A stretch of 33,218 nt of DNA, from positions 1 to 33,218 of the forward strand of contig CAOPQH010000001.1 of NCBI GenBank assembly GCA_948505485.1, given 5' to 3'. How positions within the stretch are numbered: the stretch's first letter is position 1; the number at the start of each line of letters is the position of its first letter. Origin of the DNA: an uncultured Clostridia bacterium. GTDB lineage: Bacteria > Bacillota > Clostridia > TANB77 > CAG-508. The notes beneath the pieces were generated by a model. That model worked only from the letters and a program-made list of their open reading frames with translations. It ran no database searches and was not told where the DNA came from. The position numbers and the translations under genes were made by a program. This document shows, piece after piece, positions 1-7,335 of this stretch.

Positions 1-92
1 TGTTCATTATCAGTAAATAATTGTTCTGGAAACTTGTTAAGTCCCAACTCGTTTATTTTTTTCATGCTCTCTAATTTACTACTTATCATCAT
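1..92 (-). CDS. hypothetical protein, N-terminal fragment only (gene runs off the left edge)
   Basis: ATG at 92 on the minus strand with AGGAGG (complement of 101-106) 8 nt upstream. The frame stays open to position 1 (MMISSKLESMKKINELGLNKFPEQLFTDNE...). Too short to assign a function. Confidence 0.4.
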   Translation of the reverse strand, partial: MMISSKLESMKKINELGLNKFPEQLFTDNE

Positions 93-251
93 ATACTAGT
101 CCTCCTAAAATGTTTAGTTTGGATTATTAAGCAATCTGACCATTGCTATTTTATTTGCACATTATTAATTATTATTTTAGCACATTTTTACTAGAAAAAC
201 AATGAAATTAGTTCATTATACATATTTCTCAAGTATTTTTTGTAAAAAATT

Positions 252-752
252 TCATACTCCAGTTTTTTCTGTTAGTCCATCATAATTATTTGCAATTCTT
301 TCTAATACTTCACCTTTTGAAAAATATCTTACTTCTGAAACTTCTTCTTGTTGCACTATTATTTCAGATATATCAATGTTTTTAGTAATTAAATAACATT
401 CATTATAATGCTTGTTTATAATATTTCCTTGATTATTTATTGATGTAGAGCCAACCAAATATTTAATATCATCATCGTTAATTTCAATTCCTAACTCTTC
501 TTTAGTTTCTCTAATTAATGCCTGCCTTCCAAATTCGCCACTATCTACATGACCACCTACTGTAACATCCCACATATTAGGCCATAATTTTTTATTTGCA
601 CTTCTTTTTTGCAATAAAATGTTTTCATTATCATCTATAATAAATGCATATACTGCTCTGTGCCATAATCCTTTCGTATGACATTCTTCTCTTGTTGCAA
701 TTTTTCCTGTAAATTCTCCTAGTTCATTAAGTACATCAAATTTTTCTTCCAT
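252..752 (-). CDS. NUDIX-family hydrolase
   Basis: 166-aa ORF containing a Nudix box (GGHVDSGEFGRQALIRETKEELGI, i.e. GX5EX7REUXEEXGU). GGAGG lies upstream of the ATG. Confidence 0.85.
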   Translation of the reverse strand: MEEKFDVLNELGEFTGKIATREECHTKGLWHRAVYAFIIDDNENILLQKRSANKKLWPNMWDVTVGGHVDSGEFGRQALIRETKEELGIEINDDDIKYLVGSTSINNQGNIINKHYNECYLITKNIDISEIIVQQEEVSEVRYFSKGEVLERIANNYDGLTEKTGV

Positions 753-811
753 GATTTTTCCTCCTTAAATTTTTCTTAATCGATTTATTGATCAATTTTT
801 TTACCAAAGAA

Positions 812-2164
812 TTATCTTGCAATATATTTTTGATTTCTATTCTTTGGTTGATCTGGTATTGTCAACTGTAAAGTACCTTTCTCTAATAAAGGATTTATAT
901 AATTTTTCTTAAATGTTGCTATATCTTTAAATCCAAAGTAGGTTGTAATTTCTTTTAGAGTTTTTGCATCTTTACAGAAGTCCAAAACATCCTTTTCCTG
1001 TGGTTTTACTTTAATTTTCTTAGTGGTTTTCTTGTCGGTTTTCTTAGTAGTTTTCTTGTCGGTTTTTTCATCATATTCAAATGGATTTTCTTTGTATTTA
1101 AAAGAAACTCTTAAAAAGTGAGCCATAAATTTAAAACAACTTTTATCATAAGCATCTAAAATTCTTAAAACTCCAGAACCTATATTTTCAATTAAATCTA
1201 CATCTTTAAATACTCTAATAAGCTCTTTGTTTCTTGGAGCAGTAACACCTTCTAAAAATTCCTCTTTTGATAATTCTTGAGGAAGTCCACCTGCAGACGT
1301 TATTTCAACTCTGTCCGAATATAATTCTATAATGGGGCTATTACCATAAGAATAATCATTATGAACGATAGCATTTATAACAGCTTCTTTTAATGCTTTG
1401 CTATCAATTTTTTCTTGTTCTTTTCTTCCAAAATATTCTATTTTAGCATATGTAGTATTTTCAACATCAAGCCTATCTAATATTTTTTGCGTAGCTGTAA
1501 TTAAACAACGATTACCATATTCTAAATTTTCTAAAAGTTCAAGTTTATTATTACCTAAATATCTTACAAGTTTTATAGAAACTGTATTTTCATCTGCTAA
1601 TAAGAAAGCATTATAATTGTATTTGCCTTCACTTGTTAGTAAATCAAGATTTTGCAAAAAATTATCATTTAATTTTAATCCGTGTTCTTCATAATAAATT
1701 TTTAGTTGATTAAATGTTAACTCTTGTCTAGGGGAGTCAATTTCTTTTAATGTATTCTTAATTCTTCTAGCATACATATCATCTATCATTCTTTCTGTCA
1801 TTCGTTCCTTACTACTACCAACTCTAATATAGCATCCTTCTGGAGTTCTTCCTTTTTTTCTTAAATAATAAGGCTTTTCAGTTCCACTTGATATTATAAC
1901 TTTTATTACTTCTTTATTTTCTATTGTTTCCACAGTTACATCAAATAATCCTAAAGTAGATGGTTGTATATTATTTTTTATTCTATCTTTTATTTGTAGT
2001 TGTGTTAAATCAGTATTTTCCACACCAACAACTTGTCCGTTTTTATTTATTCCAACATAAATTATTCCACCTTCTTTGTAATTAAGAAAGGCAATAACTT
2101 CTTGCTCAAAATCTTCATTCAGTTGCTCTTTGTTTTCAGTTCTGTTTGTTTCAGTATTTGCCAT
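812..2164 (-). CDS. Schlafen/AlbA_2-type ATP-binding domain protein with a RecG-C-terminal-like HATPase_c_4 region and a C-terminal wHTH-like tail (putative regulator or effector)
   Basis: The N-terminus (EQEVIAFLNYKEGGIIYVGINKNGQVVGV) looks like an AlbA_2 divergent AAA domain. The central AVINAIVHNDYSYGNSPIIELYSDRVEITSAGGLP is typical of HATPase_c_4. A lysine-rich linker is encoded by a 24-bp tandem duplication. The start lies 4 nt after the stop of the upstream ORF. Confidence 0.7.
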   Translation of the reverse strand: MANTETNRTENKEQLNEDFEQEVIAFLNYKEGGIIYVGINKNGQVVGVENTDLTQLQIKDRIKNNIQPSTLGLFDVTVETIENKEVIKVIISSGTEKPYYLRKKGRTPEGCYIRVGSSKERMTERMIDDMYARRIKNTLKEIDSPRQELTFNQLKIYYEEHGLKLNDNFLQNLDLLTSEGKYNYNAFLLADENTVSIKLVRYLGNNKLELLENLEYGNRCLITATQKILDRLDVENTTYAKIEYFGRKEQEKIDSKALKEAVINAIVHNDYSYGNSPIIELYSDRVEITSAGGLPQELSKEEFLEGVTAPRNKELIRVFKDVDLIENIGSGVLRILDAYDKSCFKFMAHFLRVSFKYKENPFEYDEKTDKKTTKKTDKKTTKKIKVKPQEKDVLDFCKDAKTLKEITTYFGFKDIATFKKNYINPLLEKGTLQLTIPDQPKNRNQKYIAR

Positions 2165-2168
2165 AAAA

Positions 2169-3365
2169 TCACACTCCTTTTTTCCAATTAATATTTTCTT
2201 CTATTTCCTTTATGCACTTTTGTAGATTATCAATTTCTATTGCTTGATTAATATCTTTTAGCATAAATACTCTAAATAATAATTTTATTTTTAATAACAT
2301 ATATAAATTGCTATCTCCATAAAATCGTTTCTTCTTTTTATCCAAATGTGCAAAATAATTTCTATGATTAGTAAGTTTAGTGTATATTTTCAAGGATTGT
2401 CTATCTTTACTTGAAAATATAATTTTTCCTTCATTAGAATTAAGATATTCTGTCATTATTTCTTTAAATTCTTTATCTACTTTTTTAGAATTCCCTTTTT
2501 TGTCTATAATAATCTTTTTCAAAGTAGGTTTATGTATGCATTTATAATATCCTTCCATACAATTTGTAATTGTACTTAATGCTATTTCAATAAAGTATTT
2601 CACAGAAAATACATTCATATATATGTCATAAATGTTATGAGTAGTTTTCCTTAATTTTAACCAATTTTTATAAGTTTGTTTTATATCTGTTTTATTTAAT
2701 TTTCCTAATACACAACTATAACTATTATAATTATTACATCCTTCATATTTGCTAGAAAATGGATAATAATATTCAAAATTCTTTTCTGCATCATATAATT
2801 TGATTTTTTTAATTTCTAAATAATATCCCAAATTCAGTATAAGGAATTCATAAAATTGTAAAAAGCTATGTATAAATTTTTCTGTTTCCAATTCTTGGCT
2901 ATTTTCCAATGTAATTTTATAATATCTTTCTCCAAATATAAGCTCTATACAATAGTTCATATTACCTATAGAGAATTTTAGAAATTTTCCTATACTTTCT
3001 TCAATTTGAACTATATCAAAATTTCTATACTCTAATCTAATTTCTATTTTATTAATTTTATAATTTCTAATATCATTAATTTGAAAATCAGTTATATATG
3101 CATTAAATTTTATTATAGTATCTATTTTATTATTTTCCATATAGTGTTTTCCAACATAACATTTATAAAAAGTATAAATATTATCATTATCATCTTTAAC
3201 ATAAACTAGTTCATCAATATATTTTTCTAATAGAATCTGTCTAAATAAAAAACTATATGTTTTAGATGAAATATCATTTTCTATAATATGAATTTCATTA
3301 TTATTAAAATCTATTGATAAATCTTTTACGTATATCGTTTCTCCATTAATAGTTATTGTACTCAT
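2169..3365 (-). CDS. HEPN-motif protein (possible ApeA-like HEPN RNase), function unknown
   Basis: 398-aa ORF with a C-terminal LTNHRNYFAHLDKKKK segment that contains the R-N-x-x-x-H (Rx4H) HEPN catalytic signature. The long N-terminal domain has no motif I recognise. It is translationally coupled to both neighbours (gaps of 12 and 4 nt). Confidence 0.55.
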   Translation of the reverse strand: MSTITINGETIYVKDLSIDFNNNEIHIIENDISSKTYSFLFRQILLEKYIDELVYVKDDNDNIYTFYKCYVGKHYMENNKIDTIIKFNAYITDFQINDIRNYKINKIEIRLEYRNFDIVQIEESIGKFLKFSIGNMNYCIELIFGERYYKITLENSQELETEKFIHSFLQFYEFLILNLGYYLEIKKIKLYDAEKNFEYYYPFSSKYEGCNNYNSYSCVLGKLNKTDIKQTYKNWLKLRKTTHNIYDIYMNVFSVKYFIEIALSTITNCMEGYYKCIHKPTLKKIIIDKKGNSKKVDKEFKEIMTEYLNSNEGKIIFSSKDRQSLKIYTKLTNHRNYFAHLDKKKKRFYGDSNLYMLLKIKLLFRVFMLKDINQAIEIDNLQKCIKEIEENINWKKGV

Positions 3366-3377
3366 TTTTATACTCCA

Positions 3378-4487
3378 TTATTTATTATTTACTAACCACT
3401 CATAAACTTCATCTTCTGTTAAAACTCCATGTTTTAATTTATTAACTTTATCTTTAGCATCCTTTTTCCATTTATCAAAATTCTTTTTCATTTGTTTATT
3501 ATCCTTGTTTCTACCAACTGCCATTGATTTTAATTGATATAATCTTCTATATTCTGCTAATGCCTTATTTTGCTTTAATCTTTCGTTATAGGCTTGTACT
3601 GCACCTTGTTCTCTACAAATTTTACCTTTTTCTTTTGGGTAATCACAATAAATTTCATCAAGTCTTGAAGAAGGTATAAAGTACATTCCACAGTTTTGAC
3701 ATTTCTTAATTGGATTATTAGTTGTTTTTACTAATTCTTCTAATACTGCATAACATATTGCAGATAGGTCATTGCTTTGATGGGTATCTATCATAGAAAC
3801 AAGCATTGTATTATTCTTAAAACTATCTAATAACTGCTTATCATTCAAATGTGATAATTCTAAATTTTTATTTGAATAACTATCTTGGATAATATTATCA
3901 TTTCTATTATAAGTATATGCTTGCCCTTTATGCTTAATTAAATATACTGCAAATCTTTGACTAGGCATGTATTCTTTTAATTCTTCTTGTTCATCAAGGT
4001 TAAATACATAGTTTACAAATGCTTTCATTTCTTCCTGTATTTCTTGTATTTTATATTGTAAGTCATTGTATATTTTTTCCATCTCTTTTAAATATACTTC
4101 ATCATTTTCATACTTTCCTTTTAATTCAAACTTATAATCTTCATCTATATCTTTTAATATTTCAAATCCATAGGCAAAGAAAAATGTTTCATAAGCTGAT
4201 TCATATGTTTCTAAATTAGCGTTTAAAAATCTTAATAAAAACATTCCAAATTTTTCTACATAAGGAAAGTACATATTGCCTGGATATTTCAAACCTTGTT
4301 CTTCCTTAGTTCTTCCTTTAACTTCATTTTTATCAAAATGTAATGTTAATAATCTATTTTCAAAATCATCTTTTCTATTTACACTATAAAGATATAAAGG
4401 TGTTGAATAATATTCTTCTCTTTTTTCTTTATTAAACCAAATATAAAAACTATCGAAAAAATTTTTTTCTGGTAAATTTGCTTTCAT
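3378..4487 (-). CDS. zinc-ribbon protein of unknown function (resembles DUF6076-type proteins of Firmicute mobile elements)
   Basis: 369-aa ORF with GGAGG upstream. It has a C-terminal Cys cluster (KKCQNCGMYFIPSSRLDEIYCDYPKEKGKICREQGA) followed by a basic helical tail. It is the first gene of a three-gene operon. Confidence 0.55.
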   Translation of the reverse strand: MKANLPEKNFFDSFYIWFNKEKREEYYSTPLYLYSVNRKDDFENRLLTLHFDKNEVKGRTKEEQGLKYPGNMYFPYVEKFGMFLLRFLNANLETYESAYETFFFAYGFEILKDIDEDYKFELKGKYENDEVYLKEMEKIYNDLQYKIQEIQEEMKAFVNYVFNLDEQEELKEYMPSQRFAVYLIKHKGQAYTYNRNDNIIQDSYSNKNLELSHLNDKQLLDSFKNNTMLVSMIDTHQSNDLSAICYAVLEELVKTTNNPIKKCQNCGMYFIPSSRLDEIYCDYPKEKGKICREQGAVQAYNERLKQNKALAEYRRLYQLKSMAVGRNKDNKQMKKNFDKWKKDAKDKVNKLKHGVLTEDEVYEWLVNNK

Positions 4488-4543
4488 TTCAATATTTCCT
4501 CCAAATTTATAGTTAACAATTTATATTTTTTTACATTTTGTTG

Positions 4544-4572
4544 TTGACATTCTATAATTATTATACTATAAT
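4544..4572 (+). promoter_or_regulatory. consensus sigma-A-type promoter facing xis/int
   Basis: TTGACA (4544-4549), exact 17-nt spacer, TATAAT (4567-4572). It would give a leader of about 280 nt before the xis ATG at 4859. Confidence 0.6.
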
Positions 4573-4588
4573 GCTATCATAATTACAA
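4560..4588 (-). promoter_or_regulatory. near-consensus promoter facing the three-gene operon, overlapping the plus-strand promoter
   Basis: On the minus strand: TTGTAA (complement of 4583-4588), 17-nt spacer, TATAAT (complement of 4560-4565). Its -10 element sits directly beside the -10 of the divergent promoter. Confidence 0.5.
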
Positions 4589-4858
4589 TAGTTTTGCAAC
4601 GAAAAATTGTAAAGCTATAAAAGTACATTGACAAATACACTTTTAATTAGTGTCATAAACCAATATTATAGAACACTATAATGATACTTCGGCTTGGCTT
4701 AATATGATGTTGAGGAGTCGCTCGGTTGGTAACGGAGAGGTGAAATTCCTATGAAAGTAAGACTAACTATAATATTCCCTATAAGTAGATGGGACAGGTA
4801 AATATAATCTACTAAACTTATGAATATGTAAATTTGATTTACAAGACAGGAGATTACA

Positions 4859-5065
4859 ATGACAAAAAATAATACGAATGAAATGTTTGCAAATTTCCCA
4901 GATGTTGTTGATGTATCAGGACTACGCACAATGCTTGGTGGAATTGGTGAACAAAAAGCATACGAATTAGTACGAAAAGGTACTATTAAAGCAATAAAAA
5001 TTGGTAAACTATATAGAATACCAAAAATAAATGTTATTGCTTTTTTAACACAAAATACTGTTTAA
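4859..5065 (+). CDS. xis: excisionase-type helix-turn-helix DNA-binding protein
   Basis: 68 aa. The segment LRTMLGGIGEQKAYELVRKGTIKAIKIGKLYRIPKINVIAFL matches the excisionase/MerR-like HTH_17 pattern. AGGAG lies upstream, and the gene sits immediately upstream of the integrase. Confidence 0.75.
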   Translation: MTKNNTNEMFANFPDVVDVSGLRTMLGGIGEQKAYELVRKGTIKAIKIGKLYRIPKINVIAFLTQNTV

Positions 5066-5088
5066 ATTTAGAAAGGAGTATATTTACA

Positions 5089-6351
5089 ATGTATAACATT
5101 ACAGCATATTTAACAATTAAGAATAAGACTTTTTATACAGTATTAACTTACTATGTAGAAGGACAAAGAAAATTAAAATGGATTTCTACAGGAATTAAAG
5201 AAAACGAAAGTAAGAAAAAAGCTGAAAAGAAACTTATTCAAATTAGAGATGAATTTAAAGAAAAATTAGAAACAATTACAACTACAAAAACAGAAGATAA
5301 AAAAATACAAATAACTTTTGCGGATTTTATGATTAAATGGCTCGATATGATAAAACATCAAATTGAAGAATCTACATATACAGGTTATAAAAGACAAATT
5401 GAAGGAAGGCTAAAAACATATTTTACAGAGCATCCCATATTACTTGTAAATTTAAAACCTGTTCACATATTAGATTTTTACAATTGGTTATATTCAGAAG
5501 GGTTAAAAGGAACTACTGTTACTTTATATCATGCTAATATTAGAAAAGCATTAGATTATGCAGTACAAACGGATTTAATTGAAACAAATCCTGCTATTAA
5601 AGTTGGTAGACCTAAATCAGAACAATATATTGCATCTTATTATACAGAAGATGAACTAAATAAATTGTTTAAAATAATAAAAGATACACCAATAGAAGTT
5701 ATTGTTACTTTAACTGCTTTTTATGGATTACGAAGAAGTGAAGTTTTAGGTTTGAAATGGTCTGCAATAGATTTTGAAAATAAAACAATTACGATAAAGC
5801 ATAAGGTTATAACTGTTACTGATGAAAATGAAGATTCAAAAACTAAAACAAAAATGATTACGAAAGATAAAACAAAAAACAAATCAAGTTACAGGACATT
5901 ACCTTTAATATATGAGGTTGAACAATTATTGTTATATACAAAGAAAATGCAAGAATACTATATGTCTATTTTTAGAGATAGTTATGAGAGAAAATATAAG
6001 GAATACATTTGTGTTGATGAATTAGGAAATTTAAGAAAGCCAGACTATGTTAGTCATAAATTTAAAGAAACACTAAAAAAGAATGATTTAAGGCATATTA
6101 GATTTCACGATTTAAGACATAGTTGTGCTACATTACTTTTGAAAAAAGGAATATCTTTAAGAGAAATACAAGATTGGTTAGGACATTCAAGTTCCAAAAC
6201 AACAGAAAGATATGCACATTTAGATTCAAGTACAAAAATTAAATCTGCATCAGCTATTGAAAAAGCATTAAGTTTTAATAAAGACATAAAAAAAGATATA
6301 TTAGATCAGGACTCTAATACATCTACATTGGATAATTTTTTAAATTGTTAG
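5089..6351 (+). CDS. int: tyrosine site-specific recombinase (phage-type integrase)
   Basis: 420 aa with an N-terminal SAM-like domain. Catalytic signature present: LRRSEVLGL (Arg), HDLRHSCATLLL (His-x-x-Arg), TERYAHL (Tyr). Confidence 0.92.
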   Translation: MYNITAYLTIKNKTFYTVLTYYVEGQRKLKWISTGIKENESKKKAEKKLIQIRDEFKEKLETITTTKTEDKKIQITFADFMIKWLDMIKHQIEESTYTGYKRQIEGRLKTYFTEHPILLVNLKPVHILDFYNWLYSEGLKGTTVTLYHANIRKALDYAVQTDLIETNPAIKVGRPKSEQYIASYYTEDELNKLFKIIKDTPIEVIVTLTAFYGLRRSEVLGLKWSAIDFENKTITIKHKVITVTDENEDSKTKTKMITKDKTKNKSSYRTLPLIYEVEQLLLYTKKMQEYYMSIFRDSYERKYKEYICVDELGNLRKPDYVSHKFKETLKKNDLRHIRFHDLRHSCATLLLKKGISLREIQDWLGHSSSKTTERYAHLDSSTKIKSASAIEKALSFNKDIKKDILDQDSNTSTLDNFLNC

Positions 6352-6387
6352 AAATCTGTTAGAAAAATCTAGCAATTTTATTATAAA

Positions 6388-6423
6388 AGCATCAAGGTTA
6401 TATCTTACGAAAACCTTGATGCT
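6388..6423. terminator. bidirectional hairpin between int and the tRNA
   Basis: 12-bp stem agcatcaaggtt / aaccttgatgct with a 12-nt loop. On the minus strand it is followed by a T-rich run, so it could terminate the tRNA transcript. Confidence 0.5.
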
Positions 6424-6427
6424 CTTA

Positions 6428-6516
6428 TGGTGCAGATGGCCGGAATCGAACCGGCACGAGGTTTAACCCTCGCAGGATTTTAAGTCCTGTGCGTCTACCA
6501 GTTCCGCCACATCTGC
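6428..6516 (-). tRNA. tRNA-Leu (anticodon UAA)
   Basis: The reverse complement folds as a cloverleaf. Acceptor stem GCAGATG/CATCTGC plus ACCA, anticodon stem CAGGA/TCCTG with loop CTTAAAA, long variable arm CGAGGGTTAAACCTCGT, T-arm GGTTCGATTCC. Confidence 0.92.
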
Positions 6517-6555
6517 ATTTAATAAATAACTGGTAGTTGTCTTACGACAATAGCT

Positions 6556-6584
6556 ATTATATTATTTAAAATACTTTTTGTCAA
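6556..6584 (-). promoter_or_regulatory. consensus promoter for tRNA-Leu
   Basis: Minus strand: TTGACA (complement of 6579-6584), 17-nt spacer, TATAAT (complement of 6556-6561). It lies about 40 nt upstream of the mature tRNA 5' end. Confidence 0.6.
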
Positions 6585-6727
6585 TATCTATTTAATATTT
6601 TTTATAATTATTCAAAATTTTATTTATTAATCACTTATAACTAAATCTTTTTAAAGAACAAATCGGAAAGCCTTAATATTAAAATAACTTACACTTTTTT
6701 CTTTTGCTTTCCTAATATATACAATAA

Positions 6728-6761
6728 AAAGATTTAATTTTTTTATACAAATTAAATCTTT
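6728..6761 (-). terminator. intrinsic terminator after the CarD-family gene
   Basis: 13-bp stem aaagatttaattt / aaattaaatcttt with T-runs on both sides, starting 8 nt after the stop codon. Confidence 0.6.
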
Positions 6762-6768
6762 TTTTCAA

Positions 6769-7335
6769 TTATTCATTAGATGTTCCTGTTTCATCAAATG
6801 GAATAAATTTATTAACTACACTATTTGGTACAATTTCTTCTGCTCTAAATGTCATAAATGATGTATTTATTTTATTATCTACTAATTCTTCAACTTCATC
6901 TTGACTTGCATGTTCTGCTAAAACTAATTCACTTACTAATATTTGTTTTGCATTGTTTAGCATTTTCTTTTCTCCTGTAGAAAGACCTTTTTCTTTTTGT
7001 TTAAAACTTAAATTTCTTACTACATCTGCTATTTCATAGATGTCTCCACTTTTCATTTTATCCATATTATCTCTATATCTTTTATTCCAATTTTTTTCCA
7101 TCTCTGTTTCATCTTGTTCTAGAATACTAAATACTTTATCTGCTGCACCTTTATCTATTATATTTCTTACTCCAACTTCTTCTGCCTTTGCTGTAGGTAT
7201 CATAACTTTTACTTCTCCTGGCATTTTTAATATGTAATAAGATTGTTTCTCCCCTAATATATCTTTTTCTTCTATTGAATCAATTGTACCAGCCCCATGC
7301 ATCGGGTATACAATTTTGTCTCCTACATTAAACAT
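6769..7335 (-). CDS. CarD/CdnL-family RNA-polymerase-binding transcriptional regulator
   Basis: MFNVGDKIVYPMHGAGTIDSIEEKDILGEKQSYYILKMP is the CarD_CdnL_TRCF N-terminal domain. I placed the start at the ATG at 7335, which has GGAG 8 nt upstream. The longer ORF-track start at 7410 has no RBS. Confidence 0.85.
   Translation of the reverse strand: MFNVGDKIVYPMHGAGTIDSIEEKDILGEKQSYYILKMPGEVKVMIPTAKAEEVGVRNIIDKGAADKVFSILEQDETEMEKNWNKRYRDNMDKMKSGDIYEIADVVRNLSFKQKEKGLSTGEKKMLNNAKQILVSELVLAEHASQDEVEELVDNKINTSFMTFRAEEIVPNSVVNKFIPFDETGTSNE

Follow-up and report, generated by a model that had tools for sequence, protein, structure and literature searches.

A divergent ApeA-like HEPN protein is the probable single-gene cargo of a defence hotspot in a putative integrative mobilizable element of gut Clostridia

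The stretch of DNA analysed here (hereafter the window) comprises 33,218 nucleotides of an uncultured Clostridia bacterium (assembly GCA_948505485.1, contig CAOPQH010000001.1) and contains three consecutive open reading frames on the minus strand, here called A (3378-4487, 369 amino acids), B (2169-3365, 398 amino acids) and C (812-2164, 450 amino acids). An earlier reading made from the sequence alone proposed that these genes, encoding a zinc-ribbon protein, a HEPN protein and a Schlafen-type ATPase, respectively, constitute one candidate defence or abortive-infection module residing on an integrase island. Our analyses point to a different arrangement, in which B probably encodes an autonomous single-gene ApeA-like HEPN RNase that is carried as cargo in a defence hotspot anchored by A and located in an integrative mobilizable element (IME). 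The anatomy of the locus is as the sequence-only reading described it, with gaps of 12 nt between A and B (3366-3377) and 4 nt between B and C (2165-2168), and its domain calls for all three proteins are likewise borne out by Pfam, which matches DUF6076 in A (four cysteines of which are invariant), HEPN_Apea in B, and SLFN_AlbA_2, HATPase_c_4 and a winged helix-turn-helix (wHTH) in C. What does not hold is the notion of the trio as one dedicated system, as the middle gene is swapped for at least ten unrelated genes or for nothing, and both A and B also occur apart.

The variability of the position immediately downstream of A, here referred to as the slot, was surveyed by scanning an alignment of A proteins against one genome per species (GTDB), which yielded 80 loci; these were annotated with a pipeline combining open reading frames and BLAST, and PADLOC and Pfam were run on representatives. 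Slot contents were tabulated for the 26 species-representative genomes with an A protein at least 73% identical to that of the window. The most common occupant is PDC-S20, a KAP NTPase (six of the 26 genomes), followed by a protein of 301-316 amino acids with an SH3_3 domain and a transmembrane (TM) segment but without annotation (four genomes). Three genomes each have PDC-S02 (a YhcG PD-(D/E)xK nuclease), a 579-residue protein without annotation, and B, one of the three B copies being fragmented, while an OLD/GajA-like gene, a Ser/Thr kinase similar to PD-T4-6/mad6, a TIR gene and a gene for a 283-residue TM protein were each encountered once. In the remaining three genomes (L025, L026 and L050) the slot is empty, with C following A after 56-57 nt. 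Metagenome contigs L022-24 add PDC-S56 (E = 1e-228) to the list, so that at least ten unrelated genes (nine families in the 26 genomes plus PDC-S56), or nothing at all, are found between the same two flanking genes, A being 73-96% and C 77-95% identical to their copies in the window. Five of the nine families (PDC-S20, PDC-S02, the OLD-like protein, the kinase and TIR) match PADLOC models at E ≤ 1.5e-11, as does PDC-S56. More divergent elements, with an A protein of 40-43% identity, have PDC-S20, HEPN_Swt1, an OLD-like gene or B together with C downstream of A, and mostly lack C.

Conserved flanks thus enclose a variable and defence-rich content, which is the configuration of a defence hotspot inside a mobile element. 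Such hotspots are familiar from P2 and P4 and from hotspot 5 of the integrative and conjugative element (ICE) SXT. The slot next to A resembles them in that conserved genes of the element flank variable, defence-rich content, and differs from them in belonging to a small IME of the MobV/RepA_N type in gut Clostridia and in that its cargo, usually only one gene, has been fitted exactly into the space of an operon that separates the stop codon of the DUF6076 gene from the ribosome-binding site (RBS) of C. Defence systems of ICEs and IMEs are dealt with in PMC10201445, and defence islands of Escherichia coli in PMC10121019. A description of the hotspot anchored by A was not found in the searchable literature. 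Three of the slot families are without a PADLOC match, namely the 579-residue protein (L032, L036 and L039), the SH3_3 and TM protein (L028, L031, L033, L051 and L087) and the 283-residue TM protein (L029), and their position makes them strong candidate defence genes. The slot may thus be used as a ready guilt-by-association filter for exposing such unannotated families.

The boundaries of the slot are sharp. When elements with different occupants are compared, their similarity ends exactly at the stop codon of A and returns at the RBS of C. In the window, the A/B junction (3366-3377, minus strand) consists of the TAA stop codon of A, directly followed by TGGAGTATAAAA and then by the ATG of B. 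At the B/C junction (2165-2177, minus strand), the RBS of C, GGAG (2177-2174), lies within the last codons of B, GGA GTG TGA, and the stop codon of B (2171-2169) is separated by 4 nt from the ATG of C (2164-2162). The motif GGAGTGTGA(T/A)... is likewise present just before C where the slot is occupied by unrelated genes (L028, L031, L037 and L051). The identities of the three proteins to their counterparts in the window are, moreover, uncoupled from each other, being 42% for A, 82% for B and 83% for C in L006, and 91%, 67% and 83%, respectively, in L013, and recombination between the flanks is therefore indicated.

As for B itself, residues 282-372 match the Pfam family HEPN_Apea (23.2 bits, E = 9.9e-5), and the string HRNYFAH (residues 334-340), which the sequence-only reading took for the HEPN signature of an ApeA-like protein, contains the motif R335-N-x3-H340. 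Approximately 30 close relatives (56-100% identity) were found, and a search of 1.84 billion cluster representatives returned 84 relatives at E ≤ 1e-3, mostly 375-486 amino acids long. When 43 relatives with 16-55% identity to B are aligned, only the columns R335, H340 and R365 are invariant, and N336 is nearly so (at least 90% conserved). Because R335 and H340 are among the sole invariant positions and N336 is nearly so, RNxxxH represents the most conserved feature of the B family; the match to the HEPN motif is therefore not fortuitous, and the call made from the sequence alone proves correct. HEPN_Apea further matches 19 of 24 close relatives (best E = 6.7e-7) and 28 of the 43 distant ones (best E = 1.2e-11), and the Pfam family ApeA_NTD1 matches one of the 24 (E = 0.002) and four of the 43 (best E = 2.6e-5). 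Among PADLOC models, those named 'Cas13-ApeA' match 20 of the 43 distant relatives with E values down to 1e-11 and PDC-S58 matches eight of them with E values down to 1e-9, although neither reaches B and its close relatives at E ≤ 1; the matches in the distant relatives nevertheless place B in the same broad ApeA-like HEPN assemblage. Judged by these similarities, B belongs to the HEPN proteins of the ApeA type, among which it is short and divergent, and its gene is a good candidate for a role in defence or abortive infection.

The AlphaFold2 (AF2) model of B (mean predicted local distance difference test score, pLDDT, 83.8; predicted template modelling score, pTM, 0.81) shows a β-rich N-terminal domain (approximately residues 1-200) and a helical C-terminal half, with helices at residues 228-251, 259-278, 351-371 and 378-391 of the C-terminal domain. 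The N-terminal half evolves faster, as its mean pairwise identity is 58% compared with 75% for the C-terminal half. Foldseek matches of the N-terminal domain to Hcp/tail-tube-like structures are weak (best E = 4e-3, TM-score ~0.2 on the query) and we do not take them as homology, and no PDB sequence was matched by a profile of the B family. Concerning its distribution, no relatives of B were found on PLSDB plasmids or in IMG/VR contigs, two distant relatives having served as additional queries in the latter case, and a metagenome scan with the alignment of close B relatives retrieved the same element only. B is fragmented or truncated in L041, L120, L121 and L123, with C also affected in L041 and L123; the broken copies reflect either real pseudogenization of a costly gene or errors in the assembly of metagenome-assembled genomes.

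Characterized ApeA proteins are single-gene HEPN defences of ~580 amino acids; their substrates are the anticodon loops of tRNAs or phage RNA, and activation follows the binding of a ligand to a pocket distinct from the active site (bioRxiv 10.64898/2026.01.26.701840, 10.64898/2026.03.20.713152). Ec1ApeA and Ec2ApeA share with B a C-terminal domain of the HEPN_Apea type, the arginine and histidine of RxxxxH (essential in ApeA and invariant in the B family) and a large N-terminal region; the domain ApeA-NTD1 was described as β-rich by Anantharaman et al. (PMC3710099). Like ApeA, B also behaves as a single gene carried by a mobile island, and by analogy an infection-activated RNase would be expected in the case of B. 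The single-gene behaviour of B is attested on genomic grounds by three observations: the alternatives in the slot are at least ten, C does not co-vary with B (see below), and a homologue with 56% identity to B (P0024 in L010) lies behind an HTH_3 gene in another Mob_Pre element, without A or C. B thus has the HEPN_Apea domain and the R-x4-H motif of ApeA; the PADLOC model and the size and architecture of ApeA do not fit it, and we therefore file it as a variant rather than as a plain member of the family.

Several observations weigh against the interpretation of B as an autonomous ApeA-like RNase. The HEPN_Apea score lies 1.2 bits below the Pfam cut-off of 24.4, and B itself matches no PADLOC family at E ≤ 1. 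The catalytic loop (residues 339-349) is modelled at low confidence (pLDDT < 50), and a Foldseek search with the whole model of B returned no HEPN structure among the top 50 matches. With its 398 amino acids, B is considerably shorter than the ~580-residue ApeA proteins, and Ec2ApeA is mostly helical and consists of three domains, whereas the N-terminus of B is predicted to be β-rich. All close homologues of B found (at least 67% identity) are located between A and C or their remnants, so the autonomy of B is argued from the single homologue with 56% identity and from the behaviour of the slot, i.e. from genomic context. Finally, the last codons of B, through the stop codon, overlap the RBS of C, a tight coupling that would also fit a functional pair.

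With these reservations, the following scenario may be put forward. A is transcribed divergently from the excisionase and integrase genes (xis and int) of the element, and the position right after it would act as a hotspot in which anti-phage genes are taken up. In most of the closely related elements, the far side of the slot is bounded by C. B would be expressed as part of the A operon of the element, and its fast-evolving β-rich N-terminal domain may sense infection, upon which the C-terminal HEPN domain (R335/H340) would cleave RNA, with B most likely acting alone. By analogy with ApeA, the likely targets would be tRNA anticodon loops, the cleavage of which would halt phage growth.

The role of C deserves separate consideration. 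Pfam recognizes in it the domains SLFN_AlbA_2 (E = 2.4e-20), HATPase_c_4 (a GHKL ATPase; E = 9.3e-16) and a wHTH of the Fic-like_C type (E = 2.1e-12). Proteins combining SLFN_AlbA_2 with the GHKL domain (PF13749) have been named Schlatpase, a class of 60,692 prokaryotic proteins, more than 90% of which have an HTH tail (bioRxiv 10.64898/2026.05.29.728809). Judged against the motifs reported in the same study, and as read from its translation, C keeps the SLFN motif E(x)4ExK (E5-TNRT-E10-N-K12), a Schlafen-box-like AFLN and the GHKL motif E250-x3-N254. It thus resembles such Schlatpase proteins as the SLFN-pAgo RzAgo in having both domains, E(x)4(D/E)xK, the AFxN Schlafen box and the GHKL E-x3-N, together with the HTH tail common in these proteins, and differs from RzAgo in having no Argonaute, NACHT or other sensor domain. 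By its domain composition C is of the typical 'Schlatpase-HTH' architecture, and it may be an active nuclease or a regulator in its own right.

It is conceivable, though we consider it unlikely, that C is a shared partner of whichever gene occupies the slot, serving as an ATP-driven sensor or regulator or as a second tRNase of the SLFN type, in which case the functional unit would be the slot gene plus C. C lies directly behind at least nine unrelated slot genes, the junctions measuring 4-5 nt or overlapping, and several slot genes end inside its conserved RBS. It also retains the nuclease and ATPase motifs of a supradomain whose SLFN domain acts in SLFN-pAgo as a tRNase effector switched by ATP (bioRxiv 10.64898/2026.05.29.728809). 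The distribution of C nevertheless speaks against an obligatory partnership, because C is retained in the three genomes with an empty slot and, conversely, slot genes occur without it: PDC-S02 in L027, L038 and L049, PDC-S20 and HEPN_Swt1 in elements with A of 40-43% identity, and B in L010. The sequence of C is not associated with the type of slot gene either. Over the first 370 amino acids, pairs of C proteins have a mean identity of 0.860 when their slots contain the same type of gene (n = 34) and of 0.860 when the occupants differ (n = 197), and the C protein of the window is closest (97.6%) to one encoded behind the unrelated 579-residue gene; as C does not cluster by slot type, the expectation that would follow from C working specifically with B fails. 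The PADLOC PDC-S models found among the slot genes presumably represent single-gene candidates, which likewise counts against a shared partner. Most Schlatpase proteins, moreover, are described as small, any additional domain being at most a short HTH at the C-terminus (bioRxiv 10.64898/2026.05.29.728809).

Two peculiarities of C may be recorded here. C proteins that are 82-92% identical over residues 1-365 end in one or the other of two unrelated winged helices (the window compared with L001, L006, L013 and L022), with the Fic-like_C type found in the window (812-1070, residues ~366-450) and in L018 and an HTH_24/MarR-like type elsewhere; the DNA-binding tail has therefore been swapped as a module. 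In addition, the linker that joins the GHKL domain to the winged helix contains the peptide TDKKTTKK as a repeat, encoded by a 24-nt tandem duplication (96% identical) at 1015-1062.

In loci with an empty slot or with PDC-S02 (L025, L026, L027, L035, L038 and L049; e.g. L025:10118-10138), the stop codon of A is followed by an imperfect palindrome, TTTGCCAA-N5-TTGGCAAA, whose flanking sequences are shared as well. Second copies are found at a distance of ~165-340 nt, within the PDC-S02 gene, and there encode LPMALAK (L027:10283, L038:3475 and L049:10454); in L038 the two copies are identical, loop included. The window lacks this palindrome, which may serve as a terminator or a recombination site or may be the scar of a deletion. 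A more elaborate possibility, slightly less probable still than a general partnership of C with the slot genes, is that the slot constitutes an organized single-gene cassette platform, with precise exchange between the stop codon of A and the RBS of C, maybe mediated by the ~21-nt palindrome, and with C as a common ATP-switched tRNase or regulator that would back or license the slot effector.

The function of B may alternatively lie elsewhere than in defence against phages, namely in stabilization of or competition by the element, as a HEPN toxin that would penalize loss of the island or attack competing elements. HEPN domains often constitute the toxin in toxin-antitoxin modules (PMC3710099), a pemK RNA motif is present in the element (see below), and the broken copies of B mentioned above are as expected of a costly gene. 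We nonetheless regard this as rather improbable, as no cognate antitoxin-like small gene and no MNT partner accompany B, the other slot occupants match phage-defence candidates and not toxin-antitoxin pairs, and the architecture of B, a large N-terminal domain combined with HEPN_Apea, is that of the phage-protective ApeA.

Least probable of all is the proposal of the sequence-only reading that A, B and C form one dedicated three-gene system, with the zinc-ribbon and Schlafen/ATPase proteins controlling the HEPN effector: the operon is tight and the trio recurs in many contigs, including L006-L009 and L084 with B and C 82-83% identical to those of the window despite a divergent backbone (identity of 42% for A and 48% for int), but A and C are adjacent without B in some elements, at least ten unrelated genes take the place of B between these flanks, other mobile elements contain A homologues and lack both B and C, B has a homologue without A and C, and an apparent B and C pair without A (L001-L005) is a decayed copy of the same island. 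The conservation of the trio outside this genome, which that reading proposed to test, is real, but the contigs all belong to one mobile-element family, the synteny being due to descent, and the AlbA_2 protein (C) is found with unrelated neighbours, an outcome that the same reading had named as speaking against it.

On the preferred reading of B as autonomous ApeA-like cargo, the ApeA-type HEPN family would be extended to a short form with a β-rich N-terminus, which is present in abundant human and animal gut Clostridia and is missed by PADLOC, the one defence-annotation resource tested. Since defence hotspots in mobile elements are well known, the finding is unsurprising in kind; what makes it useful is the divergent ApeA-like family and the supply of candidate genes that the hotspot provides. 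The locus also offers a natural setting in which to ask what role is played by stand-alone Schlatpase-HTH proteins and, likewise, by DUF6076 proteins.

The protein A matches DUF6076 (PF19553) with 40.7 bits (cut-off 23.5) over its C-terminal third, which comprises the zinc-ribbon and helical region. The cysteines C263, C266, C281 and C291 are invariant in 25 homologues of 38-91% identity. The AF2 model of A has a pLDDT of 71, and Foldseek found no PDB fold match for it (best E = 2.6); a profile search of PDB sequences with the A family also gave no matches, and DUF6076 is mentioned by no paper in the literature searched. Altogether, 603-780 homologues of A were recovered. They occur in IMEs with tyrosine integrases as well as in those with serine recombinases and have varied neighbours; homologues with 54% identity stand as lone genes in serine-recombinase IMEs, where the slot is vacant and C is not present. 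Shorter matches to the DUF6076 region come from a 300-kb plasmid of Clostridioides difficile and from a Ruminococcus phage. Judging from these contexts, A appears to be a conserved backbone gene of the element, located beside the recombination module, that heads an operon carrying cargo and acts as the left anchor of the hotspot. What our analysis adds to the knowledge of the DUF6076 family is thus a putative place in IMEs, in whose backbone the gene adjoins the recombination module and is followed by inserted cargo.

The location of the trio on an integrase island, likewise stated by the sequence-only reading, is confirmed. Upstream of A and on the opposite strand lie a xis-like excisionase gene (4859-5065, plus strand; Pfam HTH_17, E = 2.3e-8), which is kept beside int in related loci, and the tyrosine integrase gene int itself (5089-6351, plus strand; Pfam Phage_integrase, E = 2.1e-27). 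The integrase gene adjoins a gene for tRNA-Leu(UAA) (6428-6516, minus strand), the likely integration site of the element, beyond which are the CarD and dUTPase genes; the same chromosomal neighbours are present at L001 and L018. The general layout in related loci is int-xis, the divergent A, the middle gene, C, further cargo, and finally a Mob_Pre relaxase and RepA_N. The locus would accordingly represent the integrase-proximal end of an IME of gut Clostridia sitting beside tRNA-Leu(UAA), as far as can be judged from gene content; the contig ends before the part bearing the relaxase and RepA_N genes that are seen in the related loci. A direct-repeat search of window positions 1-7000 for att sites produced none that was convincing, the far end of the element being off the contig. 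Wherever the trio was encountered in other contigs, it was part of an element of this kind.

Further cargo of the same element is represented in the window by a gene for a NUDIX hydrolase (252-752, minus strand; Pfam match), and the contig terminates inside the island, within the cargo gene that follows it (the start of a 184-residue gene). Window positions 1-786, comprising the NUDIX gene and this start, are 96% identical to L041:13469-14253. Beyond that stretch, L041 contains the 184-residue gene and then a 392-residue minus-strand gene at the position of the Mob_Pre relaxase in related loci, an assignment by position alone. In L006-L009, the cargo after C includes an ADP-ribosyltransferase exotoxin-like gene (PF03496, 484 amino acids) and, behind it, a 428-residue gene (e.g. 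L006:11066-13836). The contigs L001-L005 appeared at first sight to carry an independent pair of B and C in a Tn4451-like element, which we reject, since a 28-residue remnant of the C-terminus of A is present just upstream of B; what they contain at this CarD/dUTPase site is the same island in a decayed state, with the A remnant followed by B and C. Beside the decayed island (e.g. L001:7903-17000) lies a Tn4451-like unit with a large serine recombinase, Mob_Pre and TnpV, together with another integrase.

The near-consensus promoter that the sequence-only reading assigned to the operon, divergent from xis/int, is confirmed only in part. The perfect match to the sigma-70 consensus (TTGACA-17-TATAAT, 12/12) is located at 4544-4572 on the plus strand, facing xis/int, back-to-back with the candidate operon promoter. 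On the operon side, the best promoter-like site (TTGTAA-17-TATAAT, 10/12) is at 4588->4560 on the minus strand, ~70 nt 5' of the ATG of A, and a second candidate, also with a 10/12 consensus match, is at 4634->4606 on the same strand. The number of promoter-like sites in this AT-rich region (48) shows no enrichment over shuffled sequences (40.5 ± 7.5), and the operon promoter, from which B may be co-transcribed with A, is called from its consensus match alone. The 370-nt intergenic region between A and xis also harbours a pemK RNA motif (Rfam RF02913; 4678-4754, plus strand; 57.9 bits compared with a gathering score of 34.8, E = 8.8e-9), situated between the perfect plus-strand promoter and the start of xis (4859), a placement that suggests a structured leader controlling xis/int.

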